From an uncultured Dehalococcoidales bacterium (GTDB lineage: Bacteria; Chloroflexota; Dehalococcoidia; GIF9; AB-539-J10): a DNA stretch of 60,027 nucleotides. Each line of letters begins with the position of its first letter. Positions within the stretch are counted from its first letter, which is position 1. The position numbers were made by a program, and so were the translations under genes. This document shows positions 1-28,691 of the stretch, one piece after another. The notes beneath the pieces are model-generated. The model made no database searches. It was not told the DNA's origin and was given only the letters and a program-made list of their open reading frames with translations. The stretch lies in contig CAZPDE010000001.1 in assembly GCA_964585315.1 (NCBI GenBank), positions 1 through 60,027 on the forward strand, read 5' to 3'.

Positions 1-1218
1 CAGTTTCTCGGCGACGGCGGCTGTTGTGCCGGAACCGCAGAAGAAATCTGCAACGATATCGCCTTCGTTGCTTGATGCTTTGATGATGCGCTCTACCAGG
101 GCTTCGGGTTTTTGGGTGGGGTAGCCAACTCTTTCTTTTGCAGTCGGCGCTAATAGAATGTCAGGCCATATTGATGGAGCAGCAACCCCAGGGCGTTCAT
201 CAAGATAGTACTTAATATAAGGTTGTCCAGTGCTGCTGTGGTACAGCTTTTCCTGCTTATCAAATTCCTCCATTTTTGCCTTTGAATATGCCCAAAATCG
301 TCCTTGTGGTGGCTTAACTCCTTTCCATTCGTAGGACGTATCACCGCCTGGCTTTGCAGCAGTAGGAGTAACTAGCCTATATCTACGTCCGTTTTCTATC
401 TTATTGTATTGCTGTTCAATTTGTGCATCGGAAAAAGGGATGTATTGGGTATTCCAAATAAATTGCTCAGGGTTCTTAGTGTAAAAACAAATGGAATCAT
501 GAACAATATCATATCTCCTTGCACCTTGTTTTGCATCACCATGTGCTGTTGTTCGCCGCCAGATTATCTCATTAGTAAAACCACTTTCACCAAACACCTC
601 ATCCAAAACCAACCGCATATAGCTATTCACCCGCCAGTCACAATGCACATAAATACTGCCATCCTCCGCCAATAAATCACGCATCAAAACCAACCGCTCA
701 TAAATCATGGCAATGAAACTGTCCGCCCCCCTGCCCCATGTATCACGGTAGGCGATTTCTTCCAGGATATTGGGCTTCTTGGTGAAGGTGTCGCCGCCAA
801 TCTCAATATCCATGGAAAAATCCGCACCCACATCAAATGGCGGGTCAATGTAGATTAGCTTGATGCCACCCTCCTTTTCGATTTCCTCACGGAGGGGTCC
901 GTTCTTGAGGCTGGATAGAATCAGTTTGTTATCGCCCCAGATGAGCTTGTTGGTCCAGCCCTTGAGCTGACGGCCGCGCTTGTCGATGTCAAAAAGCGCA
1001 AGCTGTATCCTGGTGTCCTTTTCGGCGCGAGGTTCGTCAACCTGTTCAATGACCTGAAAAGGCAACACTACATTGGAGACTTCATTAGTCTTGCCGTTCC
1101 ACACCAGCTCAACCTCCCGTTTCTCCTCAAACAGGAGAAACCGGTACTTGTCCGGCAACGGCTTCCCCGCTTCAAGGTATTGGGTGATGTCACGGATTTC
1201 ATTGTCAGTGAGTTTCAT
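1..1218 (-). CDS. DNA adenine methyltransferase, type III Mod-like / beta-class (partial, 3' end off window)
   Basis: Absent from the ORF track because no stop lies in the window. My minus-strand translation from ATG at 1218 gives [43 protein letters not shown]... Motif [12 protein letters not shown] comes first and motif [17 protein letters not shown] lies at the window edge (IV-before-I order). Confidence 0.8.
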
Positions 1219-1395
1219 ACGCTCCCCTGATTATGTATTATATCACTTGGCTGCCTGGTTTGGGGGGATAGGGCGCTGTGATAGCTGGGGGAATGTAACA
1301 TCCGAGTTCAGGCGCTGCACGGTGCTTGCAAAACCAGCCTTAATTTGAGGCTGTCCCTGGCGGTCGGAGTGCAAGGAGTTGTTAGACGGCCATCT

Positions 1396-2178
1396 TTAAT
1401 CAGTCTTTGACTCCAGTGACGTCTGCTCCTTGAGCTGTTTCAAGTAGTCAAGGATTGGTGTGTCGGGTAGACCATCTGCAATTGTTTGGCTATAGTCAAG
1501 GGCGGCTAGAAGTTCTTGGGCAGCAAGACTGGTGGTATCGCCATATGACTCCATCATTTGCATTGCTTGTTTTCGCAGATCCCCGATGGATTGCTTCATG
1601 GCTGGAATGATATCGGTGGGCATCCAGCCAGTTACATCACGTAGAATCTGACGTAGTTCAAGTTTCTGTTCTTTAGTGCCTTTGAACTTTTCTGGCCATT
1701 CCCATAGAAATCTTTGAAATTCAAGATAAAGGGCAAATACCCACGTCATGATAGGTTCGCCGCCTTCCACTGAGAAATCCATCATGCGTTGATCAAACAC
1801 AGTTGGCTGATAATGATACACCGTATTACGAAAGCGCCTTAACAAGCTGCAGTACTCTGGATAATCATTTAGCAATCCATCCACGACTTTGTCTCTATAC
1901 CCAAGATGTTGCCAGCCCTCAATGACGACCCACATACTCGCAAACCATTGAGCGCTAACTGCCACGAGATGCCACTCTGGGACCTCATCATCTGGTGGTA
2001 CCACATCGTTATGGTAGGAAATGAATCGGCGGCGCTGTAGGTCTGCCCAATACAGATACCTAGCCCACGAAACGAATCTATCGAATTCGATACTAAAATC
2101 AGTCTCCATCAGTAAAGCTCCACCGCTAGTTTCAGGCCGCCTAACGCCCGAATTCAGCCACCGCCAGGGAATATACAA
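1396..2178 (-). CDS. Hypothetical protein, no family recognised; likely true start METDFSIEF at 2109
   Basis: 260-aa ORF on the same strand directly upstream of the Mod-like gene. It is Trp/Tyr-rich and I can name no motif. Confidence 0.45.
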   Translation of the reverse strand: MYIPWRWLNSGVRRPETSGGALLMETDFSIEFDRFVSWARYLYWADLQRRRFISYHNDVVPPDDEVPEWHLVAVSAQWFASMWVVIEGWQHLGYRDKVVDGLLNDYPEYCSLLRRFRNTVYHYQPTVFDQRMMDFSVEGGEPIMTWVFALYLEFQRFLWEWPEKFKGTKEQKLELRQILRDVTGWMPTDIIPAMKQSIGDLRKQAMQMMESYGDTTSLAAQELLAALDYSQTIADGLPDTPILDYLKQLKEQTSLESKTD

Positions 2179-2362
2179 AACAACCCCTCGGTGGAACCAA
2201 CTCCAAATTCACCCAACCACAGTATAACCATCCAGAAGAGCGCTGACAAGCGACCTCCTTTGCCGTTCCGCCAGGGTGAATCGAAACTAAGTCACGACAG
2301 CAAGCCCAAGCCTATTTGGGGTCGCCCCTGGCGGTTGGAGTTCGTTGAGTTTGTTGGGTGGC

Positions 2363-2629
2363 TTACTCATAGTGAGTCCACATTCGGATCACCTTTACAA
2401 TCCGTTCCTCTTCAAGTATTTGATAGACCAAACGGTGCTGGATATTGATTCGACGGGAATAAGCTCCCGATAAATCTCCTACCAACTTTTCGAATGGCGG
2501 TGGCGTTTGAAAAGGGTCCGTGCAAAGTAAATCAATCAGTGGCGTTGCTTTGGACTTTAATCCGGCGGCTACCAGTTTTCGAGTATCCTTCTGAGCTTGT
2601 TTCGTGAAAACGACCTTCCAATTCACCAA
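2363..2629 (-). CDS. yoeB: Type II toxin YoeB/Txe (RelE fold)
   Basis: 88 aa with C-terminus RINIQHRLVYQILEEERIVKVIRMWTHYE, typical of YoeB. It overlaps the upstream antitoxin ORF by 7 nt. Confidence 0.85.
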   Translation of the reverse strand: MVNWKVVFTKQAQKDTRKLVAAGLKSKATPLIDLLCTDPFQTPPPFEKLVGDLSGAYSRRINIQHRLVYQILEEERIVKVIRMWTHYE

Positions 2630-2892
2630 TCAAGTTCCTCGGAGCATTCACTGACCGGCGTATTCAACCCTTCAATAATCGATTCTCGCATGCCTGGGGT
2701 CGAGAGCAGGTGCAAGGTCTCCTGAATTGAGCGCCAATCATCTTCTGCTACGAGAACCGCATTTGCCCGCTTCCCTGTTATGAGGACGGATTCGTGAGAT
2801 GTTGCTATCTCGTCGATTAATCGATAGAGTCTAGCTCTGGCATCCGTTGCTTTGAATGTAGTCATTATTAACCTCGTTATGAAATGTTTCAA
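2623..2892 (-). CDS. yefM: Type II antitoxin YefM/Phd family (probable start MTTFKATDARARL at 2862)
   Basis: The ORF contains ...ARARLYRLIDEIATSHESVLITGKRANAVLVAEDDWRSIQETLHLLS, the Phd/YefM pattern. It is paired with yoeB. Confidence 0.85.
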   Translation of the reverse strand: MKHFITRLIMTTFKATDARARLYRLIDEIATSHESVLITGKRANAVLVAEDDWRSIQETLHLLSTPGMRESIIEGLNTPVSECSEELDW

Positions 2893-2963
2893 AATGATGA
2901 TACGCTATAACGTACGCATTGTCAAGTAAGACTCTCACCCACTACACAAGCCTCTTAGCCTAT

Positions 2964-4055
2964 TTAGACATTAAATAAAAAGGTAACTATATCTCCATCC
3001 TGGACAATGCAATTCTTGCCTTCTGTTCTGAGTAAACCTCTTTTCCTCGCCTCAACAAGATTACCACACCTCTCCAAATCGCTGTAGCTGACTACCTCAG
3101 CTCGGATAAACCCCCTTTCCATATCGGAATGAACTTTCCCTGCCGCCTTCGGCGCAGCGCTACCACTATGTATAGTCCATGCTTTTAATTCAGCGGAGGC
3201 CGTGGTAAAGAAGGAGATTAAACCTAGAAGGTGATAGGAAAGGTCGATAACTCGGTCAAGCGCCGGTGTAGTTAGTCCCAATGCCTCACGGAATTCTTTG
3301 GCTTCAGTGTCGCTGAGCTGAGATAGCTCCATCTCCAGCTTGCCGCATAATGCTACCACAGCAAATTGGGGATAAAGTAACATTATCTCGCTCTCCAATT
3401 GTGCAGCTTGTGGTATTTGCGCCTCTCCAATGTTAAGGACAACCAGCAGCGGCTTCGCAGTGAGAAACTGGTAATTAGACAACATTTTAAGTTCATCCTC
3501 AGCTAAGCCCTGCTGCCTGATTGGTATTTCTTTCTCCAATTCTGCCTTAATCTTTTGCAATAGGACTTGCTCTTTCAGGTATAATCCGCGCTCCGTGGTT
3601 TTGGCTCCTTTTAGAGTTTTCTCCAGCCTCTCAAGTCTTCTTTCGATAATGGTTAAATCCGAGAAGGCGAGCTCTAAATCCAGGGTAGCCATATCTCGTT
3701 TGGGGTCTACGCTTCCTTCAGGATGGGGGGAATTCGCATCTTCAAAAATTCGAACTACTTGTATCAAAGCATCGGCGGTAATTAGATAGTTCAATAGCTC
3801 TCCTCTTATTCCTTCCTCAATGCCAAAAGTTTTGGGTGAGCCGGCAATATCTATATAATTTACTTCTGCAGGAACGGTCTTCTTAGGCTGAAATATATTT
3901 TCCAGCGTTGATAATCGTGGGTCAGGCACTTTAGCCACACCGGTGTTTGGGGCTAGGGAAGGAGAATAAGTGGCAACTTCAGCCTTGCCTCTGATTAAGG
4001 CATTAAAAATTGTTGTTTTGCCGCTCTTGGGCAGCCCGATAATGGCAATCTTCAC
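2964..4055 (-). CDS. ychF: Ribosome-binding ATPase YchF
   Basis: 363 aa with P-loop IIGLPKSGKTTIFNAL and a TGS-like C-terminus GKNCIVQDGDIVTFLFNV. Confidence 0.93.
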   Translation of the reverse strand: MKIAIIGLPKSGKTTIFNALIRGKAEVATYSPSLAPNTGVAKVPDPRLSTLENIFQPKKTVPAEVNYIDIAGSPKTFGIEEGIRGELLNYLITADALIQVVRIFEDANSPHPEGSVDPKRDMATLDLELAFSDLTIIERRLERLEKTLKGAKTTERGLYLKEQVLLQKIKAELEKEIPIRQQGLAEDELKMLSNYQFLTAKPLLVVLNIGEAQIPQAAQLESEIMLLYPQFAVVALCGKLEMELSQLSDTEAKEFREALGLTTPALDRVIDLSYHLLGLISFFTTASAELKAWTIHSGSAAPKAAGKVHSDMERGFIRAEVVSYSDLERCGNLVEARKRGLLRTEGKNCIVQDGDIVTFLFNV

Positions 4056-4105
4056 AGCTATATCCTATCATATTTTGGCTTTACCCTGATAAAATACTAC
4101 AGAGA

Positions 4106-5110
4106 ATGTTTTATATTTTCTACGGTCAGGATGATCTTTCTCGTTACCAAGCTGTAGAGGCAATTAAAAATGGCTTGGGCGACCAGGAAATGTTAGCGGT
4201 TAATACCACCAGTCTAGATGGTCAGCATCTAACTTTAAATGAGCTTAGGGATAAATGTGGCGCTGCTCCCTTTTTGTCCCCACACCGATTGGTTATAGTT
4301 AACGGCCTGCTACAACGTTTTGAGCCAAAGCGAGGCAGCTTGCGAGCTGGCAAACGCGCCGCCGCTGAACCTCAAAGCAAGTTGCGAGAGTGGCAAGATA
4401 TGGTTTCTTACATTGAGCAAATGCCCATGACCACTGTGTTGATATTAGTTGATGGCAAGATAAGTGGCTATAATCCCCTGTTAAAGAAAGTTTCGCCATT
4501 AGCTAAAGTGAAGACCTTCTCTTTGTTACAAGGCAAGAGCTTGAGAATCTGGATACAACAGCGAGTCAACAATGAAAGTGGCAGTATCACTCCTCAGGCA
4601 GTGAATTTGCTCGCTGAACTCATAGGGGGAAATCTATGGGCAATGAGTAATGAAATCCAGAAGCTGCTTCTTTATAGTCAAGGATGCGCTATCGATGAGG
4701 CTGATGTCAAGCAACTGGTGAGCTATGCCCAGGAAGCTAGCATCTTTCCCTTGGTGGATGCAGTTCTCGAAAGTCAAAGCAGGATAGCCCAAAGAATATT
4801 GCATCAACTATATCAGGAAGGCGCCGCCCCAGCCTATATTCTAGTCATGATTACCAGGCAGTTCCGCTTGATAGCATTAGCCAAGGGGTTGGAGCCTGGC
4901 CTATCCCATTTGCAGATTCAAAATAGGGTAGGCATATCGGGTTACGGTTTAGATAAAACACTCAGGCAAGCCAAATTGTATGATTTTAAGCGTATAAAAC
5001 AGGCTTACGCTAAGCTTTTGGAAACGGACATCGCTATCAAAACTGGTAAATATAATGAGAAATTAGCACTGGAACTTTTAGTAGCTGAGCTTGCCAGCCC
5101 ACGAGTCTAA
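4106..5110 (+). CDS. holA: DNA polymerase III delta subunit
   Basis: 334 aa. N-terminus MFYIFYGQDDLSRYQAVEAIK and overall length fit HolA. Confidence 0.8.
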   Translation: MFYIFYGQDDLSRYQAVEAIKNGLGDQEMLAVNTTSLDGQHLTLNELRDKCGAAPFLSPHRLVIVNGLLQRFEPKRGSLRAGKRAAAEPQSKLREWQDMVSYIEQMPMTTVLILVDGKISGYNPLLKKVSPLAKVKTFSLLQGKSLRIWIQQRVNNESGSITPQAVNLLAELIGGNLWAMSNEIQKLLLYSQGCAIDEADVKQLVSYAQEASIFPLVDAVLESQSRIAQRILHQLYQEGAAPAYILVMITRQFRLIALAKGLEPGLSHLQIQNRVGISGYGLDKTLRQAKLYDFKRIKQAYAKLLETDIAIKTGKYNEKLALELLVAELASPRV

Positions 5111-9112: not shown

Positions 9113-9140
9113 GTCATTGCGAGCGAAGCGAAGCAATCTC
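9113..9140 (+). repeat. Family A copy A1, minimal 28-nt unit, alaS-ruvX intergenic
   Basis: gtcattgcgagcgaagcgaagcaatctc, with attgc/gcaat inverted termini. Confidence 0.85.
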
Positions 9141-9158
9141 ATAGGATTTAATCTTAAA

Positions 9159-9713
9159 ATGCGCAGTTTAGGGCTGGATGTTGGGGATAGAAGAACTGGG
9201 GTGGCGATAAGTGACCCTCAAGGGCTTTTAGCTATTCCCTTAACCATTATTGACAACAAAGACGAAGATGCCACCATAGTCGATATTATTAACCTCGCTG
9301 AGCAATACCAGGTAGAGCGTATTGTAATTGGTTTACCTTATTCATTAGATGGTAACCTTGGGCGACAAGCCAATAAGGTAACAGCTTTTGCTGAGAAGCT
9401 CCAAAATGTCATTGCGGTGAGCCGAAGCCCTGAGCCCTCCGCTCCTTGTCATTCTGAGGGAGCGAAGCGACTGAAGAATCTTGCTCAGGATAAACCATGT
9501 AGTGAGCGAAACGAATCTATCAGCGAAGGGAAAACGAAGCAATCTAGTCTTGTCGGACTCGATATACAACTATGGGATGAGCGGCTGTCTACCAAAGCTG
9601 CTGATAAGCTAATGCTTGAAGCTGGGACCAAGAAAAACAAAAGGAAACAGCACCGTGATGCCATAGCTGCTGCCTTTATCCTTCAGGGATTCCTTGACAG
9701 CTTGCAAGATTAA
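9159..9713 (+). CDS. ruvX: Holliday-junction resolvase-like nuclease RuvX/YqgF carrying an in-frame repeat insert
   Basis: MRSLGLDVGDRRTGVAISD ... LWDERLSTKAA ... AAAFILQGFL. The track ORF starts at 9117 inside a repeat unit, so ATG 9159 is the more likely start. Confidence 0.85.
   Translation: MRSLGLDVGDRRTGVAISDPQGLLAIPLTIIDNKDEDATIVDIINLAEQYQVERIVIGLPYSLDGNLGRQANKVTAFAEKLQNVIAVSRSPEPSAPCHSEGAKRLKNLAQDKPCSERNESISEGKTKQSSLVGLDIQLWDERLSTKAADKLMLEAGTKKNKRKQHRDAIAAAFILQGFLDSLQD
9408..9547 (+). repeat. Family A copy A2, inside ruvX, in frame
   Basis: gtcattgcggtgagccgaagccctgagcc...cattctgagggagcgaagcgactgaagaatcttgctcaggataaaccatgtagtgagcgaa...gaagcaatct. It encodes VIAVSRSPEPSAPCHSEGAKRLKNLAQDKPCSERNESISEGKTKQS. 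Confidence 0.9.
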
Positions 9714-10645: not shown

Positions 10646-11644
10646 GTGAACAATCCCTATCTTATTGATTGGCCAATTACTAATAGATGTAATCTTAGTT
10701 GCCTCCATTGTAGAGGGATGGCGCCTCAGGAACTTGATGGCGACAAGGTGTTACAGGTTGCAGAGGAGATACTTTTACTCAAGCCGAGATGGGTCATTAT
10801 CGAGGGAGGGGAACCGCTTTTACGCCAAGAGCTATTTGAAATCGTTGAAATCATTCATCGGGGTGGAATCAAGATTTATCTTATCAGCAATGGCATGTTT
10901 CTCGATGAGAATATAGCCAGGAGATTAGCTGAATTTGAAGTAAATCTCATGATAAGCATAGATGGAGCTGATAGAGAGAGCTACGAGGAAATAAGGAGAG
11001 GGGCAAGTTTTCAAAAGTTAAAAGAGTCGGTGGCAATTGCCAGCGAATATAAAATCCTCGATTCCTGTCCTGTGACTATAGGGAAACATAACTATGAACA
11101 AATCGGCAAAATATTTAAATTTGCCCATGAAATAGGATACAAAAAAATTACATTTTTGGGATTGAAGCCCTGTAAGGATTATGAAAGATATGCTTTGAGC
11201 GGAGAAGAATATGAGAATAGCTTCTTTTCTGTTGTTAAATATCAAAAGGAATACATGATGGATGTATATTTTGACGAGCCTTTTTTTAAACCATTTCTAA
11301 GGGAGCACGATATTGATTATTCCGCAGGCTCGGAAAATGGCATTATAGTTCCCGATACTTCCTCCTGCATCTTTGGTAGTTATATGTTTATTGAGACAAA
11401 CGGCGATGTAAAGCCCTGCACATTTGCGCCTGTAGTAATGGGCAATGTAAATGAAAAAAAACTGACCAAAATATGGGATGATATGCAAAATTCGGAACTA
11501 ATTAAAAAGATAAAGGATTTCGCTACAAGAGAAGGCAAGTGCCGAAAGTGTAAATATTTGTATGATTGTGGAGGCTGCCGGTCAAGGACATTTGCTTTAA
11601 CCGGAAGTTGGCTGGCATCGGACCCTTCTTGTCCATTGAGGTGA
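10646..11644 (+). CDS. Radical SAM protein with C-terminal SPASM domain
   Basis: CNLSCLHC (CX3CX2C) at residues ~15-22. The C-terminal 7-Cys pattern is C-X11-G-X4-C ... CRKCKYLYDCGGC ... DPSCP. GTG start is preceded by aaggagg. Confidence 0.85.
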   Translation: MNNPYLIDWPITNRCNLSCLHCRGMAPQELDGDKVLQVAEEILLLKPRWVIIEGGEPLLRQELFEIVEIIHRGGIKIYLISNGMFLDENIARRLAEFEVNLMISIDGADRESYEEIRRGASFQKLKESVAIASEYKILDSCPVTIGKHNYEQIGKIFKFAHEIGYKKITFLGLKPCKDYERYALSGEEYENSFFSVVKYQKEYMMDVYFDEPFFKPFLREHDIDYSAGSENGIIVPDTSSCIFGSYMFIETNGDVKPCTFAPVVMGNVNEKKLTKIWDDMQNSELIKKIKDFATREGKCRKCKYLYDCGGCRSRTFALTGSWLASDPSCPLR

Positions 11645-11646
11645 AA

Positions 11647-12654
11647 ATGAGAGTCGTAGGAATAGACCCCGGAACATATAGCTTCGACCTTTTCGGAATG
11701 GAAGATAATAGGGAAATTATAGTAGATGAATCTGTAAAGTCGGAGGACCTCTTCAACAATCCTTATATACTTATGCAAAAGCTTGAGAATTTAATGCCGC
11801 TAGACAGCATCAGCGGTCCCTCAGGGTGGGGAATACCGCTGAAAAGCATAAAGGATATGACAGAAAGCGATGTTGGGAAAATGATTCCTTTGGATACAAA
11901 GGTAGCAGTAAATGAGGGAATAAAGAATGTGCTTTTAGAGATGAAGGAAAGAGAAATGCCTGTTTATTTCACACCCGGTGTCGTTCATCTTAAAACCGTG
12001 CCCTCTTATAGGAAGTGGAATAAATTCGATATGGGAACAGCAGATAAAGTATGCTGTGTAGCATTAGGGATAAAGAATCAATCTGAGAGGTTAAGCATTT
12101 CCTTTGAAGAGACCTCCTTTATTTATGTAGAATTAGGTTATGGCTTTACCGCAGTACTCGGGGTTGAATCGGGGAGAATAGTCGATGGGATAGGGGGCAC
12201 AAATGGCGCATTGGGTTTTATCGCCTTAGGGGGCATGGATGCTGAAATTGCCATTAGATTAAAACCGCCGTTGACGCAGGATATCATTTTTAGGGGTGGC
12301 TTAAGGGATTTTGTTGGCAAAGACATTGAGCCGGAAGATCTAAAGGACTATAAAGAGGCGATGACTCTTTTAGGTGAAAGCGTGGAAAAAGATGTAGCTT
12401 CAATGTTTGTTTCTGTGCCTTACCCTAAAGAGATAATCCTATCCGGTAGGTTAATACAATATGAATTTATACAGAGGGAGCTTGCGGATAGACTTAAAAA
12501 GTATGGGAGGGTTATAAAGGTTGGGAGGCTATCGAGGACTGCTAAGGAAGCTGCTTGTGGCGCCTATATTATTGGAGAGGGATTGCTTGGCGGAAAATAC
12601 CATAAGCTTGTAGAAAATATGAAGATTAGCGATGGCGCCGAATATTCAAATTAA
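11647..12654 (+). CDS. ASKHA-fold ATPase-like protein, DUF1464-like
   Basis: MRVVGIDPGTYSFDLF (phosphate-1-like), DMGTADKV, GGTNGALGF. ATG at 11647 lies 2 nt after the rSAM stop. The track start 11566 overlaps the rSAM gene and is unlikely. Confidence 0.6.
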   Translation: MRVVGIDPGTYSFDLFGMEDNREIIVDESVKSEDLFNNPYILMQKLENLMPLDSISGPSGWGIPLKSIKDMTESDVGKMIPLDTKVAVNEGIKNVLLEMKEREMPVYFTPGVVHLKTVPSYRKWNKFDMGTADKVCCVALGIKNQSERLSISFEETSFIYVELGYGFTAVLGVESGRIVDGIGGTNGALGFIALGGMDAEIAIRLKPPLTQDIIFRGGLRDFVGKDIEPEDLKDYKEAMTLLGESVEKDVASMFVSVPYPKEIILSGRLIQYEFIQRELADRLKKYGRVIKVGRLSRTAKEAACGAYIIGEGLLGGKYHKLVENMKISDGAEYSN

Positions 12655-12726: not shown

Positions 12727-13640
12727 ATGAAAAGGGGAAAAATAATAATTATTGGCTTGGCTATGTTACTGCTAGTTGTGATGTTGATTCCTACTAGCTG
12801 TATTCCAGCAGGGGATAAAATCGCCGTGATTTCTCTCAGCGGGACTATTACAGCTCAAAGCTCTTTCTTCGGCTCTGCCATTACACCGGAACTGGTAAAG
12901 GAGCAACTAGATAGAGCAGAGAAAGATGGGGCGGTAAAGGCGATCGTTCTCCGCATAGAGAGCCCTGGAGGGGTGGTGGCGCCTTGCCAGGAAATTTTAG
13001 AGGAAATAGAGAAAAGGTTAAGCAGACAAAACCCATTGTGGTCAGTATGGGGAGTATGGCTGCCTCTGGAGGCTATTATATTTCTTGTGAGGCGGATAAA
13101 ATCGTAGCTCTTCCCGGCACACTGACGGGAAGTATTGGGGTTATCTCTCAAATACCGAATGTTGAGGGGCTCTATGAGAAACTGGGGATTAAGATACAAA
13201 CCTTCAAAGGTGGCAAATATAAGGATATGTATTCTGGAATGAGAGAGCTAACATCTGAAGAGAAAGAAATCATGCAGCAGTTGACTGACGAATATTATGA
13301 GCAGTTCGTTGGAGTAGTGGCTGAGGGTAGGGGACTAAGCAAAGAGCAAGTTAGAAGTTTAGCTACAGGACAGCTTTATTCCGGTGCTGAAGCTAAAGAG
13401 CTAGGACTGGTTGATGAACTAGGCGGGCTGGATACAGCTATAGATTTGGCCGCCGAGCTAGCTGGCGTTGAGGCTCCAAAAGTGGAGTACTACCAACAAC
13501 CTCAACCGTCCTTAATGTCGCTATTGGGATTGGCTGATGCTATCCAGATGAGATTATTAGGATTGAGTGGAGAGGATATAGTATTATTGCAAACCTTAAA
13601 TCATACTTATCCCACACCTCAATATCTATATCAAAGCTAA
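12727..13640 (+). pseudogene. sppA: Signal peptide peptidase SppA (36K type), reading frame split by a 1-nt shift at an A-run
   Basis: Track ORFs 12727..13107 and 12984..13640 together read ...VLRIESPGGVVAPCQEILEEIEK / VKQTKPIVVSMGSMAASGGYYISCEADKIVALPGTLTGSIGV. The frames switch at gagaaaagg (A-run 13012-13015). Confidence 0.8.
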
Positions 13641-15154
13641 TGGGGCAGTTTCGCTTTTTCACCGCTGGAGAATCCCACGGAAAGGGATTGGTAGCCATAG
13701 TCGAGGGAATGGTAGCCGACCTCCCTTTGGAAGCGGAATATATCGATAAAGAACTCAAACGCCGCCAGCAAGGCTATGGACGTGGTCTTCGCATGAAGAT
13801 AGAACAAGACGAAGTTCAAATCATCTCCGGGATTCGCTATGGATTTACTATAGGCAGCCCTATTGCTCTCTATATCCCCAATCGAGATTGGCAAAACTGG
13901 CAGGAGAAGCTAAGCGTTGCACCATTAGAGAAGGAAGCCGAGCCTGTGACCTACCCTCGCCCGGGACACGCCGACCTGGCGGGAGTAACCAAATATGGGC
14001 TTAAAGATATCAGACCCATAATAGAAAGAGCCAGCGCCCGGGAGACAGCCGCCAGGGTAGCTGCCGGAGCTGTAGCTAAAAGGTTTCTGGAAGAACTTGG
14101 CATTGCCATTCACAGCCACACTACAGCAATTGGACATGTTAGCTGCGAGCCCTTCCCTTCTTCTGTCATTGCGGTGAGCCGAAGCCCTGAGCCAAAGTTG
14201 CGAGCCGAAGGCGTGGCAATCAGCGAAGGGGAAGCGAAGCAATCTCATCTCGCTCAGGATAAACCATGTAGTGAGCGAAGCGAATCTATCCGCGAAGCAA
14301 CCTCTATAACCTGGCAGCAAGTTGAAGCCTCCCCGGTCCGCTGCGCTGATGCTAAGCTAGAAAAGGAGATGATAGCAGCCATTGATGAAGCTAAAGCCAA
14401 TGGAGATACCTTGGGTGGCATTTTCGAGGTAATCGCCAGTGGAGTGCCTATAGGCTTGGGCAGCCATGTTAGTTGGGAGCGTCGCCTCGATGGCAGAATT
14501 GCCCAGGCTATAATGAGCATCAATGCCGTGAAGGGGGTGGAGATTGGCTCAGGTTTTGCCTTGGCTGAACTTAAAGGCTCACAAGCTCATGATGTTATTG
14601 AACCCAATCCTCCCGCTGTCATTGCGGTGAGCCAAAGCACTGAACCCTTCGCTCCTTGTCATTCTGAGCGTGTGAGCCGAAGCCCTGAACAGAGTGAAGG
14701 GGAAGAATCTCATGGCGCTCAGGACAGGCTCCGTGAAGGGGAAGAATCTCGTCTCGCTCAGGGTAAACCATGTAGTGAGCGAAGTGAATCTATCCGCGAA
14801 GAGGAAGCGACGAAGCAACCTCCTCTCCCCTGGCGCCACGCCACTAATCGCGCTGGTGGCATTGAAGGTGGTATTAGCAATGGGGATGACATAGTAGTCA
14901 AGGCTGCGGTTAAGCCTATTGCTACTTTAGCCAATCCTTTACCTTCTATAGACCTTCGCAGTGGCGAAGCAGTTAAGGCTCATTACGAGCGCAGCGATAT
15001 TTGCGTTGTCCCCGCTGCTGGAGTGATTGCCGAAGCTATGCTAGCCATCATTTTAGCTGACGCCTGCCTGGAGAAATTCGGCGGAGATAACCTAAAAGAA
15101 ACCCTGGCAAACTACCATAATTACCTGAATAACACATCCCGCTTGTGCCTCTAA
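13640..15154 (+). CDS. aroC: Chorismate synthase with two in-frame repeat inserts
   Basis: FTAGESHGKGLVAIVEGMVA, RPGHADLAG, NRAGGIEGGISNGDDIV and ERSDICVVPAAGVIAEAM. It is 504 aa against roughly 360-400 aa for typical AroC. Confidence 0.95.
   Translation: MGQFRFFTAGESHGKGLVAIVEGMVADLPLEAEYIDKELKRRQQGYGRGLRMKIEQDEVQIISGIRYGFTIGSPIALYIPNRDWQNWQEKLSVAPLEKEAEPVTYPRPGHADLAGVTKYGLKDIRPIIERASARETAARVAAGAVAKRFLEELGIAIHSHTTAIGHVSCEPFPSSVIAVSRSPEPKLRAEGVAISEGEAKQSHLAQDKPCSERSESIREATSITWQQVEASPVRCADAKLEKEMIAAIDEAKANGDTLGGIFEVIASGVPIGLGSHVSWERRLDGRIAQAIMSINAVKGVEIGSGFALAELKGSQAHDVIEPNPPAVIAVSQSTEPFAPCHSERVSRSPEQSEGEESHGAQDRLREGEESRLAQGKPCSERSESIREEEATKQPPLPWRHATNRAGGIEGGISNGDDIVVKAAVKPIATLANPLPSIDLRSGEAVKAHYERSDICVVPAAGVIAEAMLAIILADACLEKFGGDNLKETLANYHNYLNNTSRLCL
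14165..14304 (+). repeat. Family A copy A3, inside aroC, in frame
   Basis: It encodes VIAVSRSPEPKLRAEGVAISEGEAKQSHLAQDKPCSERSESIREA. Confidence 0.9.
14618..14822 (+). repeat. Family A copy A4, inside aroC, in frame
   Basis: It encodes VIAVSQSTEPFAPCHSERVSRSPEQSEGEESHGAQDRLREGEESRLAQGKPCSERSESIREEEATKQ. Confidence 0.9.
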
Positions 15155-25538: not shown

Positions 25539-25542
25539 GGTC

Positions 25543-25681
25543 GAGATTGCTCCACTTCCCATTCGCGGATAGATTCGCTTCGCTCACTACATGGTTTATC
25601 CTGAGCAAGATTCTTCAGTCGCTTCGCTCCCTCAGAATGACAAAGAGCGAGGGGCTCAGGGCTTCGGCTCACCGCAATGAC
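25543..25681 (-). repeat. Family A copy A5, hisB-hisC intergenic, full composite
   Basis: The reverse complement reads gtcattgcggtgagccgaagccctgagcccctcgctctttgtcattctgagggagcgaagcgactgaagaatcttgctcaggataaaccatgtagtgagcgaagcgaatctatccgcgaatgggaagtggagcaatctc. Confidence 0.9.
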
Positions 25682-25724
25682 AGATGGGGGCAGCTCGTAG
25701 CTAACAAAGAGACCTATCACTAGC

Positions 25725-27056
25725 TTAACATAGCTTCTTTAAAGCCTCAATTAAGGCATCGGTGTCCTCAGGCTTGCCCACACTTATTCGCAGGCATTCT
25801 TTTAATCGTGGACTATCAAAGTAACGAACGAAAATGCCTTTCTTTTGTAATTGGCGCCAGATTCCTTTGGCGTGAGATTCTTCCCCTTCACGAATAGATT
25901 CGCTTCGCTCACTACATGGTTTACCCTGAGCAAGATTCTTCAGTCGCTTCGTTCCCTCAGAATGGCAAGGAGCGAAGGACTCAGAATGACGGTGTAAGGA
26001 GCAAAGAATAAAATTAGCGCTGGAGGGATAGGGCTTTAGCCAACGAGATTGCTCCGCTTCCCTTTCGCGGATAGATTCGCTTCGCTCACTACATGGTTTA
26101 TCCTGAGCAAGATTCTTCAGTCGCTTCGCTCCCTCAGAATGACAAGGAGCGAGGGGCTCAGGGCTTCGGCTCACCGCAATGACATTTAGTTTAGCAAATA
26201 ACCGCTCTCGTTCAGCCACTATCTTTGCTACATTATGTCGAAGGTAATCTATATCTGTCAGAGAGGCTAGCACGGCTGTTTGCGCCGCTGCATTAATATT
26301 ATATGGTGGCTTAATTTTCATTAGATAGCTAGCGACCTCGGTAGGGAAAAAGCCATAGCCTATTCTTAAGCCAGCTAGCCCTGCCCATTTGCTGAAGGTG
26401 CGCAGCACTATCAGGTTGGGATAGTTAGGCACCAAGTTAGCCATAGTTACACCGCTAAACTCAAAGTACGCCTCATCCACCACCACGATTCTCCCAGTAT
26501 CTACAAGCTCTACAATCTCTTGTTCACTACTGGTGTTGCCTGTAGGATTGTTAGGCGAGGCAACGAAAATAACCTTTGTTTTTCCATTTAGTGCCCCCTT
26601 TATACCCTTAATATCAAGGGCGAAATCTTCGTTTCTAGGCACATCAACCACCTTGCCTCCGCAAAGCTCAGTGTTAAAGGGATACATGCCAAATGTTGGT
26701 GAACAGTTGATAACTTTATCCCCAGGGTTAAGGAAAAGTCGCAGAATAAGGTCAATTAGCTCGTCACTACCGCTGCCGCAAACAATGTGTTCAATGCTTA
26801 AGCCGGTGTAGTTCTCCAGAGCTTGCCTCAACTCCCTTTGTTCCGGGTCAGGATAGATATTGTAGTAAGGGTAACTGGCTAGAGCTTGATAGACCTTGGG
26901 GGAGCAACCATAAGGATTTTCATTGCCATCGAGCTTTATTATTTTCCCACCAGCCCGCTGCTCCAAAATCTCTATAGGCTCAATAGGGGTATAGCTTTTC
27001 ATAGCTGCTAGTTCAGTCCTTATCAGCTTTTTTATGTCCACTTCAACTAAAACCAA
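25725..27056 (-). CDS. hisC: Histidinol-phosphate aminotransferase with two in-frame repeat inserts
   Basis: KLDGNENPYG, SPNNPTGN, RTFSKWAGLAGLRIGY and PSSANFIL. It is 443 aa against roughly 350-370 aa typical. Confidence 0.92.
   Translation of the reverse strand: MVLVEVDIKKLIRTELAAMKSYTPIEPIEILEQRAGGKIIKLDGNENPYGCSPKVYQALASYPYYNIYPDPEQRELRQALENYTGLSIEHIVCGSGSDELIDLILRLFLNPGDKVINCSPTFGMYPFNTELCGGKVVDVPRNEDFALDIKGIKGALNGKTKVIFVASPNNPTGNTSSEQEIVELVDTGRIVVVDEAYFEFSGVTMANLVPNYPNLIVLRTFSKWAGLAGLRIGYGFFPTEVASYLMKIKPPYNINAAAQTAVLASLTDIDYLRHNVAKIVAERERLFAKLNVIAVSRSPEPLAPCHSEGAKRLKNLAQDKPCSERSESIREREAEQSRWLKPYPSSANFILCSLHRHSESFAPCHSEGTKRLKNLAQGKPCSERSESIREGEESHAKGIWRQLQKKGIFVRYFDSPRLKECLRISVGKPEDTDALIEALKKLC
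25874..25990 (-). repeat. Family A copy A6, inside hisC, in frame
   Basis: It encodes HSESFAPCHSEGTKRLKNLAQGKPCSERSESIREGEESH. Confidence 0.9.
26045..26183 (-). repeat. Family A copy A7, inside hisC, in frame
   Basis: It encodes VIAVSRSPEPLAPCHSEGAKRLKNLAQDKPCSERSESIREREAEQS. Confidence 0.9.
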
Positions 27057-27158: not shown

Positions 27159-28691
27159 TTATGGAGATGGTTTAGATTGCTTCGCTTCCCCTTCACGGAT
27201 AGATTCGCTTTGCTCACTACATGGTTTATCCTGAGCGCAGTGAGATTCTTCGCGGAGTTTACCCTGAACGGTATGAGATTCTTCGCTACGCTCAGAATGA
27301 CAGGAAGTGAAGGGCTCAGAATGACAAGAAGCGAAGGGTTCAGTGCTTCGGCTAACCGCAATGACAGAGGGGCTCGCAATGACACGGAGGGCTATTGCTT
27401 GAGCGTGAGCATCCAACCCTTCAGCTCTGGCTATTACCATAGCTGCCTGGCTTAGTTCTTGCATAGCAGGCTCATCCAAAGCGACGATATTGCTAACCTT
27501 TAGGAAATCAGCAACACCCAAAGGAGAGCTGAAGCGAGCGCTACCCTGGGTAGGCAAGACATGGCTGGGACCAGCAACATAATCACCCAAAACCACGGGT
27601 GAATTTTCACCAATGAAGATACAGCCAGCGTTACAAATTCGGGGAACCAAAGAAGAGGCATTGGCTACCATGAGGGAAAGATGCTCCGGGGCAAAAAGGT
27701 TCACCAATTCGATTGCTTCATCAGTGTTACGGACAATTACAATCATTCCGGTATCAATAGCCTTTCTAGCAATGGAATGCCGCTTTAATTTTCCCAGTTG
27801 CCTCTCAATTTCCTTATCCACCCGATTGGCTAATTCAGATGAGGTAGTGACTAAAATCACTGATGCCAAGGAGTCATGCTCAGCTTGAGCTAAAAGGTCA
27901 GCAGCACAAAGGGTAGGGTTGGCTTTCCCATCGGCTACGAGCATTAGCTCACTCGGACCTTCGAGACCATCAACGCCTACTGCGCCATAAACCATTTTCT
28001 TAGCTAAGGTTACAAAGATGTTGCCAGGACCACAAATTTTATCCACTCTGGGTATTGACTCAGTGCCAAAAGCTAAAGCAGCAATAGCCTGAGCGCCACC
28101 AACTTTGAAAATACGGTTGACCTCAGCGATGCCAGCAGCTACTAAGGTAGGCGCAGGGATGCCTCCATCTTTGCCAGGCGGTGAAGCCACAATGATTTCC
28201 TTTACACCTGCTACCTTGGCCGGTATAGCCGTCATCAACACTGTGGATGGGTAAGCAGCAGTGCCACCGGGAACATATAGACCCACCCTATCTAAGGGAC
28301 GAATCTGTTGTCCCAGGTGCTTGTCAATGGGAAACACGCCAGTCTTATGTCCACAAGCAAGGTGGAAATCTTGTATTCTTTTGGCAGCCAGTTCCAGCGC
28401 CGAGACGAGTTCCTTGTCCACTTTGTCGTAGGCTGCGGCGACTTCCTGCTTACTTACTTCAAGGGAATCAAGCGCGACGCCATCCAGTTTCTTGGTGTAA
28501 TCAAAGAGGGCTTCATCGCCTTTACGCCGAACTTCACTTATGATAAGGTCAACTGTCTGTTGAGGAGAAAGCTCCTTCCCGAAAGTTTGCTTTATTTGTG
28601 CTGCCACCCCTGACGAGGCGGCAAAAGATTCCAGAAAGTCTTTCCTGGCCAACAATTGTTTTGCTTTAGCAAATCCTTCGACTCGTATCAT
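27159..28691 (-). CDS. hisD: Histidinol dehydrogenase with a repeat-derived C-terminal extension
   Basis: LYVPGGTAAYPSTVLM, AQAEHD and HVLPTQGSARFSSPLGV. The canonical end ...AHAQAIALRV is followed by about 75 aa of repeat-encoded sequence. Confidence 0.93.
   Translation of the reverse strand: MIRVEGFAKAKQLLARKDFLESFAASSGVAAQIKQTFGKELSPQQTVDLIISEVRRKGDEALFDYTKKLDGVALDSLEVSKQEVAAAYDKVDKELVSALELAAKRIQDFHLACGHKTGVFPIDKHLGQQIRPLDRVGLYVPGGTAAYPSTVLMTAIPAKVAGVKEIIVASPPGKDGGIPAPTLVAAGIAEVNRIFKVGGAQAIAALAFGTESIPRVDKICGPGNIFVTLAKKMVYGAVGVDGLEGPSELMLVADGKANPTLCAADLLAQAEHDSLASVILVTTSSELANRVDKEIERQLGKLKRHSIARKAIDTGMIVIVRNTDEAIELVNLFAPEHLSLMVANASSLVPRICNAGCIFIGENSPVVLGDYVAGPSHVLPTQGSARFSSPLGVADFLKVSNIVALDEPAMQELSQAAMVIARAEGLDAHAQAIALRVIASPSVIAVSRSTEPFASCHSEPFTSCHSERSEESHTVQGKLREESHCAQDKPCSEQSESIREGEAKQSKPSP
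27173..27383 (-). repeat. Family A copy A8, forms the 3' end of the hisD ORF
   Basis: It encodes (R)VIASPSVIAVSRSTEPFASCHSEPFTSCHSERSEESHTVQGKLREESHCAQDKPCSEQSESIREGEAKQS. Confidence 0.9.

Follow-up and report, generated by a model that had tools for sequence, protein, structure and literature searches.

Two in-frame inserts in the chorismate synthase of an uncultured Dehalococcoidales bacterium, probable copies of a modular dispersed repeat family

The aroC gene and its two inserts

The window analysed here is a 60,027-nt stretch of an uncultured Dehalococcoidales bacterium (GenBank assembly GCA_964585315.1, contig CAZPDE010000001.1, positions 1 to 60,027 of the forward strand), and its gene of interest is aroC (13640..15154, +), coding for chorismate synthase. 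The protein of 504 amino acids (aa) is encoded by a single open frame that runs without stops across two inserts. An earlier note, made from the letters of the sequence alone, had described inserts of 46 and 68 aa between positions 14165 and 14822. Both were real and in frame, with an excess of 46 aa at residues ~171-218 and of 58 to 65 aa at residues ~323-392, and the coordinates were exact, 14165 being the first base of GTCATTGCGG (insert 1) and 14822 the last base of ...GCAACCTC (insert 2). The length of 504 aa also stood, but not the 361-aa E. coli yardstick, which overstated the excess since this clade belongs to the ~390-400-aa Aquifex/Mycobacterium/Dehalococcoidia type of AroC, the proper reference; family-level relatives displayed 389-400 aa. 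In the stretch bounded by anchors G165 and W225 (site 1), 59 residues were counted in the query against 13 in family relatives. Between I320 and W398 (site 2), 77 residues compared with 12 in relatives, or 17-19 in those with a mini element (see below). Relative to orthologues, both insert lengths are multiples of three.

Chorismate synthase converts 5-enolpyruvylshikimate 3-phosphate into chorismate using reduced flavin mononucleotide (FMN). Judging from its sequence, the core of the present enzyme looks functional. In profile searches it matched PF01264 (E=5.5e-118, 393.9 bits for a cut-off of 27) and passed the equivalog level of both NF003793 (421.6 bits, cut-off 321) and TIGR00033 (394.9 bits, cut-off 212.2), with the PF01264 model alignment interrupted at profile position 247. 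Alignment with the Aquifex aeolicus enzyme (1Q1L) resolved into three blocks (query 4-172, 226-320 and 398-499 against 9-178, 195-289 and 298-398), and alignments with the M. tuberculosis, B. longum and S. pneumoniae chorismate synthases broke at the same places. This comparison with AroC structures, which the earlier note had proposed, placed the inserts at the two gaps between the three blocks. The coincidence held in the five best-matching solved structures, for which alignments were shown and in which the loop at site 1 measured 10-16 residues and that at site 2 1-9. Neither site was described at loop level in a review of the shikimate enzymes of M. tuberculosis.

The claim that the catalytic blocks are intact was borne out, as catalytic and signature residues were kept. 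Residues H13, H110 and D453 of the query aligned with H10, H110 and D339 of the S. pneumoniae enzyme, which are catalytic (PMC3509576), and both insert sites were separate from the segments bearing them. Every invariant column of an alignment of 120 homologues was present in the query, whose end branch in the AroC tree (0.066 against a median of 0.034) was not flagged as long. Insert 2 had been located right before the FMN-binding block; this was upheld as a sequence distance, the only form in which it could be checked, since the insert ended ~10 residues ahead of the invariant N403-x2-G406-G407-x-E409-G410-G411. A second, insert-free aroC was also looked for, and protein and profile searches of the 73%-complete assembly recovered none, PF01264 being matched at a single locus. 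Among other shikimate pathway genes, aroE lies inside the window and an intact aroA was found on a different contig.

Comparison with orthologues from other genera showed that each aroC repeat copy lies between the two ends of a founder element which these orthologues carry. At site 1, DNA alignment identified the 5' half of a founder mini element, CATGTTAGCTGCGAGC (14135..14150, +), homologous to the sequences at this position in genomes G017 (CATCATTGCAAGC) and G010 (CAACATAGCTGGGAGC). Its 3' half, GAAGCAACCTC (14294..14304, +), was common to G007, G017 and G010, and the uninterrupted founder read CATCATTGCAAGCAAAGCGAAGCAACCTC in G017 and GTCATTGCGAGCGAAGCGAAGCAATCTC in G007. Between the two halves lies insert 1 proper (14151..14293, +), 143 nt long; compared with orthologues that have the founder alone, the net gain is 138 nt (46 codons). 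The insert starts with a lead-in CCTTC..CTTCT (14151-14163, +), followed by an 84-nt unit (14164-14247, +) identical at 82 of 84 positions (98%) to C19:13227-13310 elsewhere in the assembly. A 46-nt GCTCAGGATAAACCATGTAGTGAGCGAAGCGAATCTATCCGC unit (14248-14293, +) comes last and, with its flanks, was 95% identical to C16:20955-21080 over 113 nt.

Site 2 displayed the same organization. The founder's 5' end, GTCATTGCG (14618..14626, +), was common to G007 and G017, and its 3' end, AGCGACGAAGCAACCTC (14806..14822, +), was recognized by DNA alignment with orthologues; the complete founder in G017 was GTCATTGCGAGGAGCGTTAGCGACGAAGCAATCTC. The 3' end holds a founder-type GAC triplet found in G007, G017 and G024 but not in the other long forms of the present genome. 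Insert 2 proper (14627..14805, +) has ~180 nt and corresponds to the genome's composite "long form" of ~165 nt, with modules GTGAGCC.., CCTTCGCTCCTTGTCATTCTGAG, CGTGTGAGCCGAAGCCCTGAACAGAGTGAAGGGGAAGAATCTC, GCTCAGG.. and CATGTAGTGAGCGAAG..ATCCGCGAAG. One internal gap excepted, it was 90-93% identical over ~163 nt to copies at C7:9050-9216, C7:12128-12291 and C19:17034-17196. This gap, ~37 nt in alignments with the C7 copies, reflects an in-frame tandem duplication of 39 nt or 13 codons (14694..14771, +; copies 14694-14732 and 14733-14771), a direct repeat with a spacing of 39 nt and 90% identity that was missing from other long-form copies. The earlier note was right in recognizing two sites of different module make-up, although neither insert goes back to one event; both are composite, with a founder mini element enclosing longer family units, and insert 2 further contains the 39-nt duplication. 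The two inserts nevertheless have in common a 67-nt module at 90% identity.

Relative to founder-only orthologues, no target-site duplication was detected at either aroC junction. The inserts themselves contained no long inverted repeat, and terminal complementarity of the repeat element was limited to ~5 nt. No protein domain was found in either insert by profile searches. The encoded peptides consist to 77-79% of S/E/R/A/G/Q/P/K/D, with net charges of 0 and -6, and are predicted to form disordered loops: an AlphaFold2 model built on the 120 close homologues, weak overall (mean predicted local distance difference test score, pLDDT, of 55), gave them pLDDT values of 24-35 and no secondary structure. 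With this low-confidence model, the beta-alpha-beta sandwich of chorismate synthase was recovered: all 28 Foldseek matches in the PDB at E <= 0.001 were chorismate synthases, the best template modelling score (target-normalised) being ~0.68.

Throughout the clade, both AroC loops have gained and lost repeats with particular frequency, and the query stands at the far end of a continuum, as emerged from a survey of its 120 closest homologues. Site 1 had 13 aa in 82 of them, often TCHCERSEAISIN, which is a translated mini element and which, like similar loops in these 82 homologues, resembles the translated query loop "HVSCE.."; the other 38 ranged from 15 to 64 aa. Lengths at site 2 ranged from 10 to 77 aa, 49 homologues having 12 aa, 29 having 17 aa (..SVIASEAKQ..) and 13 having 28 aa, and the query alone reached 77 aa. 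When the tree was computed with the insert columns removed, the expanded state changed at least 20 times per site; as this was a quick FastTree reconstruction with many weak forks, the count is rough, yet frequent turnover is still clear. Likewise, supported sisters differed at both sites: P0004 (64 and 27 aa at sites 1 and 2) from P0118 (13 and 12 aa), and P0020 (43 and 19 aa) from P0036 (13 and 28 aa).

The repeat family within and beyond the genome

The repeat nature of the inserts, already proposed in the earlier note, was confirmed far above chance level and also outside aroC. Two recurring cores of 21 and 24 nt, GTCATTGCGGTGAGCCGAAGC and TGTAGTGAGCGAAGCGAATCTATC, occurred 6 and 7 times in the window against 0.01 and 0.00 expected. 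In the whole assembly (1.16 Mb in 72 contigs, 45% GC, estimated 73% complete), short-word BLAST retrieved ~180 loci, 84 of which (roughly 45%) were inside long open reading frames (ORFs). The family is modular, with units of 24-50 nt in variable order: GTCATT[GC][CT]GAG heads, CCCTTCGCT.C.T spacers, GTGAGCCGAAGCCCTGAAC..GTGAAGGGGAAGAATCTC, GCTCAGG[AG][TC]A.., CATGTAGTGAGCGAAGCGAATCTATCCGCGAAG and GAAGC[AG]AAGCAATCTC tails. The earlier interpretation was partly supported; it had missed the genome-wide extent of the family, the composite nature of the inserts and the turnover at the loops. No Rfam family reached its gathering score in the whole window, with chance-level hits alone in 14100-14900. 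Literature searches for such repeats in Dehalococcoidia and for their core strings found nothing, those with GTCATTCTGAG returning unrelated cloning vectors, beta-lactamase, and mammalian and yeast work.

Within the window, further copies were found in genes whose products were confirmed by profile: one in frame in ruvX (9117..9713; copy 9407..9546, +), two in frame in hisC (25725..27056, -; copies within 25873..26184, -) and one forming the C-terminal tail of hisD (27159..28691, -; copy 27170..27390, -). An intergenic copy between hisC and hisB (25542..25684, -) was 97.9% identical to a hisC copy 500 nt off, and its sense frame was open as well. Profile searches confirmed Mfd, TilS, PdxT, FolC, DnaE, FtsY and an MtaB-like radical-SAM protein as further hosts, in which the repeat usually occupied an inter-domain or terminal position. 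Genome-wide, the copies most alike lay near one another, copies 3 kb apart being 100% identical and copies 0.5 kb apart 97.9%.

Some individual loci deserve mention. The long forms C7:9050-9216 (+) and C7:12128-12291 (-) were identical over 162 nt, inverted and 2.9 kb apart; they flank three genes, one copy being within an ORF, and may result from recent conversion or could serve as a substrate for inversion. Several copies occurred together in mfd (C9:~170-3550) and in the MtaB-like gene (C71:~3800-4380). Mfd also contained antisense-frame copies (..LWLRASAHRND.., ..LLRFARNH..), indicating that the hydrophobic reading is sometimes tolerated. In the same-genus genome G001, the HisC ORF (C17:61710-62936) is shorter (415 aa) than the present one (443 aa), with 84% identity between them, and repeat content therefore varies within the genus; aroC was not found in that assembly (82% complete).

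Six-frame translation of the composites left only two open frames. The sense frame used in aroC (VIAVSRSPEP..CHSE..AQDKPCSERSESIRE..) is hydrophilic, and the open antisense frame is rich in Phe, Leu, Trp and Arg. The genome-wide statistics were based on crude gene calls (longest ORFs of at least 120 aa). Inside such ORFs, core TGTCATTCTGAG was in sense orientation 36 times and antisense 5 times, whereas between co-directional genes 18 copies had the same and 35 the opposite orientation (Fisher p = 1e-7 against in-ORF copies); the in-gene bias is therefore not due to the mode of arrival. The family was ~8-fold denser in intergenic (0.37/kb) than in coding DNA (0.045/kb). Core-to-core spacings that break the frame were rare in ORFs (1 of 27) compared with intergenic DNA (17 of 47; p = 0.0016), and 67 of the 77 in-ORF matches were read in the aroC frame. 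Mismatches to the aroC copies amounted to 3.8/5.6/6.2% at the three codon positions in ORFs and 4.7/4.6/6.0% in intergenic copies, a similarity that leaves no sign of peptide-level constraint, and selection on the insert peptides was set aside in view of this absent codon-position signal. Altogether, these statistics are evidence for a selection filter on repeat copies and not for a peptide function.

Distribution outside this genome was examined at two levels. Of 201 genomes sampled from the class, 77 contained the 14-mer TGTCATTCTGAGSG, and controls with the reversed pattern gave zero; the 14-mer's 89 copies in the present genome (76 per Mb) make it about as dense as in the richest sampled one. 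The 28-nt mini element GTCATT[GC][CT]GAGCGAAGCGAAG[AC]AATCTC was found exactly in >120 contigs that span many phyla, among them Chloroflexota, Planctomycetota, Omnitrophota, several proteobacterial classes, Bacteroidota, Nitrospirae, a candidate phyla radiation genome and a metagenome-assembled genome (MAG) of Thermoplasmata, as well as in cultured Sphingopyxis, Chryseobacterium and Thiomicrospira. In some contigs it formed an inverted pair with a 28-45-nt spacer directly 3' of a gene (example loci of the mini element are L022:5306-5389, L029:2645-2740, L070:7214-7307 and L075:3701-3728). Neither an Rfam family nor a paper was found for this 28-nt element.

In the neighbourhood of aroC, sppA lies directly 5' (12727-13640) and is broken up into two overlapping ORFs (126 and 218 aa), apparently through a shift of 1 nt in an AAAAGG run near 13013-13018; relatives have a single gene of 307-326 aa. 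The split could be a sequencing error or a true pseudogene. Between aroE and the sppA/aroC pair (10646-12654) were a radical-SAM/SPASM gene, whose best hit was AhbD/NirJ-like and under the equivalog cut-off, and a gene for a 362-aa protein without NCBIfam hit.

Origin of the inserts

Our results make it probable (about 80%) that the AroC inserts are copies of a modular family of dispersed short repeats, i.e. selfish DNA that is tolerated within a coding sequence. According to this scenario, the ancestor of the AroC clade would have gained mini elements (28-36 nt) at two loops of variable length, and the elements would then have served as landing pads for longer family members. Copying of the latter between conserved ends may have proceeded by homology-driven gene conversion or template switching, a site-specific transposase being a less likely route, and local slippage would have added the 39-nt tandem duplication. 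The shared founder ends, the matches of 92-98% identity elsewhere in the genome and the similarity of neighbouring copies fit copying via shared ends plus slippage. Selection would purge versions with a broken frame, a stop or a hydrophobic antisense peptide, and the survivors would be translated as disordered loops rich in Ser, Glu, Arg and Ala, tolerated by AroC. We infer that these loops are passengers in a working enzyme rather than a new function.

Several points weigh against this scenario. The homology arms are short (9-19 nt) and come without target-site duplication, and the sole REP-associated tyrosine transposase (RAYT) gene of the genome (REP, repetitive extragenic palindromic) is not flanked by the repeat family. 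The number of modules of a repeat within a short-read MAG could be mis-assembled. The structural model is weak, with its mean pLDDT of 55, and surface exposure of the loops was argued from length variation and solved structures. Insert 2 ends very close to the invariant glycine-rich motif, with only those ~10 residues in between; a second aroC could still exist elsewhere as the genome is only 73% complete, and the gene calls behind the genome-wide statistics are crude.

A more ambitious proposal, which we consider doubtful, is that the family represents an undescribed, coding-compatible and self-targeting system in which the 28-nt mini element, present in identical form in many bacterial phyla, provides pads within genes, to be overwritten or extended by longer members via shared ends without a dedicated transposase. 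If so, core enzymes across Dehalococcoidia would possess fast-evolving disordered loops, exemplified by AroC at two of them. More generally, should the landing-pad model apply, it would offer a route by which repeats make length-variable disordered loops in conserved proteins. The AroC case is informative as its history can be read from orthologues, with a founder, nested growth, a tandem duplication and repeated gain and loss. In practice, such repeats affect the annotation of MAGs through inflated protein lengths, split profile hits and spurious ORFs.

Among competing explanations, an adaptive origin appears unlikely but fared best. The loops would then be acidic disordered segments recruited for solubility, partner binding, regulated turnover or condensates and kept by selection in AroC and other enzymes. 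This would agree with a family consensus that keeps one hydrophilic frame open, intergenic copies included, with the presence of repeat-derived sequence at the same two AroC loops in many lineages and with the location of inserts in other hosts, at termini or in linkers between domains. Yet ORF copies showed no excess of third-codon-position mismatches relative to intergenic ones, and the similarity was at the DNA level, with a peak between neighbouring copies. Loop length and module content varied between supported sisters, many close relatives were devoid of inserts, and copies were, as mentioned, about eight times denser outside genes.

It is quite improbable that aroC is decaying as a pseudogene, or that the insertions have crippled its enzyme, in a cell that obtains aromatics elsewhere. 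The small genome (1.16 Mb assembled), the frameshift of the adjoining sppA and the position of insert 2 near a conserved glycine-rich motif could be interpreted in this way. They are opposed by 504 stop-free codons, scores over the equivalog cut-offs, the conservation of H13, H110, D453 and all invariant columns, an end branch (0.066) of unremarkable length and the intact aroE and aroA. Moreover, dnaE, ftsY, tilS and others carry the same repeat, and these genes cannot all be dead.

Mis-stitching of repeat copies into aroC during metagenome assembly is a very remote prospect, even if repeats of 140-200 nt are hard for short-read assemblers: the aroC frame continues on both flanks of each insert, with lengths in multiples of three, independent assemblies of related organisms have repeat-derived inserts at both sites, and the ends specific to the founder agree with orthologues and not with other copies of this genome. 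Least credible is a removal of the inserts before the enzyme is made (intron-like, intein-like or by bypassing), for which nothing speaks beyond their location within a gene, while inserts of 138 and ~200 nt that are in frame and stop-free, lack Rfam matches, domains and intein block residues, are too short for inteins and for most segments fold no better than shuffled sequences speak against it.

Relation to known repeat systems

Compared with canonical chorismate synthases of ~390-400 aa (1Q1L, M. tuberculosis 2O12 and S. pneumoniae 1QXO), the query matched in its core and catalytic residues and differed by ~46 and ~65 extra residues in two loops. Inteins and self-splicing introns were rejected as models for these segments (46 and ~65 aa) as they displayed neither domain hit nor Rfam match.

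Intragenic MITEs, miniature transposable elements of the inverted-repeat kind, such as ERIC, BOX, Correia and cyanobacterial MITEs (reviewed in PMC10969869) are likewise small, non-autonomous repeats that are sometimes fused in frame with host ORFs. In contrast to them, the aroC sites displayed neither terminal inverted repeats of useful length nor target-site duplications, and no parent insertion sequence was identified.

Elements of the REP/REPIN type (REPIN, REP doublet forming a hairpin) resemble the present family in being very short, high-copy and mostly intergenic, and this genome encodes one RAYT (C51:3897-4589; NF047646, 104.7 bits). The 28-nt mini element, which in other phyla is found in inverted pairs separated by a short spacer, adds to the likeness. 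Yet what flanks the RAYT gene is not the aroC repeat family but hairpins of its own: AGGTCT...GACCT and GCAGACCTGAAGGTCTGC border its core on either side (3864-3904 and 4477-4517) and had no other occurrence in the genome. Further differences are a terminal stem of only ~5 bp and the ~45% of loci in ORFs. Across the 201 genomes of the class, presence of RAYT and of the motif was loosely linked (odds ratio 2.6, p = 0.002), and genomes with 32-91 copies but no RAYT do exist (up to 91 in genus g36). RAYT was therefore set aside as mobiliser, given the weak association across genomes and the absence of the family from its flanks.

The closest analogues are the Rickettsia palindromic elements (RPEs), repeats of ~150 bp with their own open frame found in frame in many unrelated genes (PMC10969869, summarising Ogata et al. 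2000 Science 290:347 and Ogata et al. 2002). Membership is not claimed, since the aroC family is non-palindromic and modular, grows by nesting and belongs to a different phylum. RNA folding of its segments gave z-scores of -0.07, -0.78, -2.4, +0.2 and +1.0, and the idea of a palindrome or structured RNA was discarded, as whole inserts folded no better than shuffles and one sub-segment alone reached -2.4. Modules of 24-50 nt in variable order contrast with the discrete RPE families of ~100-150 bp, growth takes place within older copies at the same site, and most copies are still intergenic. The likeness would thus be one of behaviour: both are short dispersed repeats of small genomes, with many in-frame insertions in unrelated conserved genes, and both have an intrinsic open frame translated as extra segments that appear compatible with the fold of the host protein.

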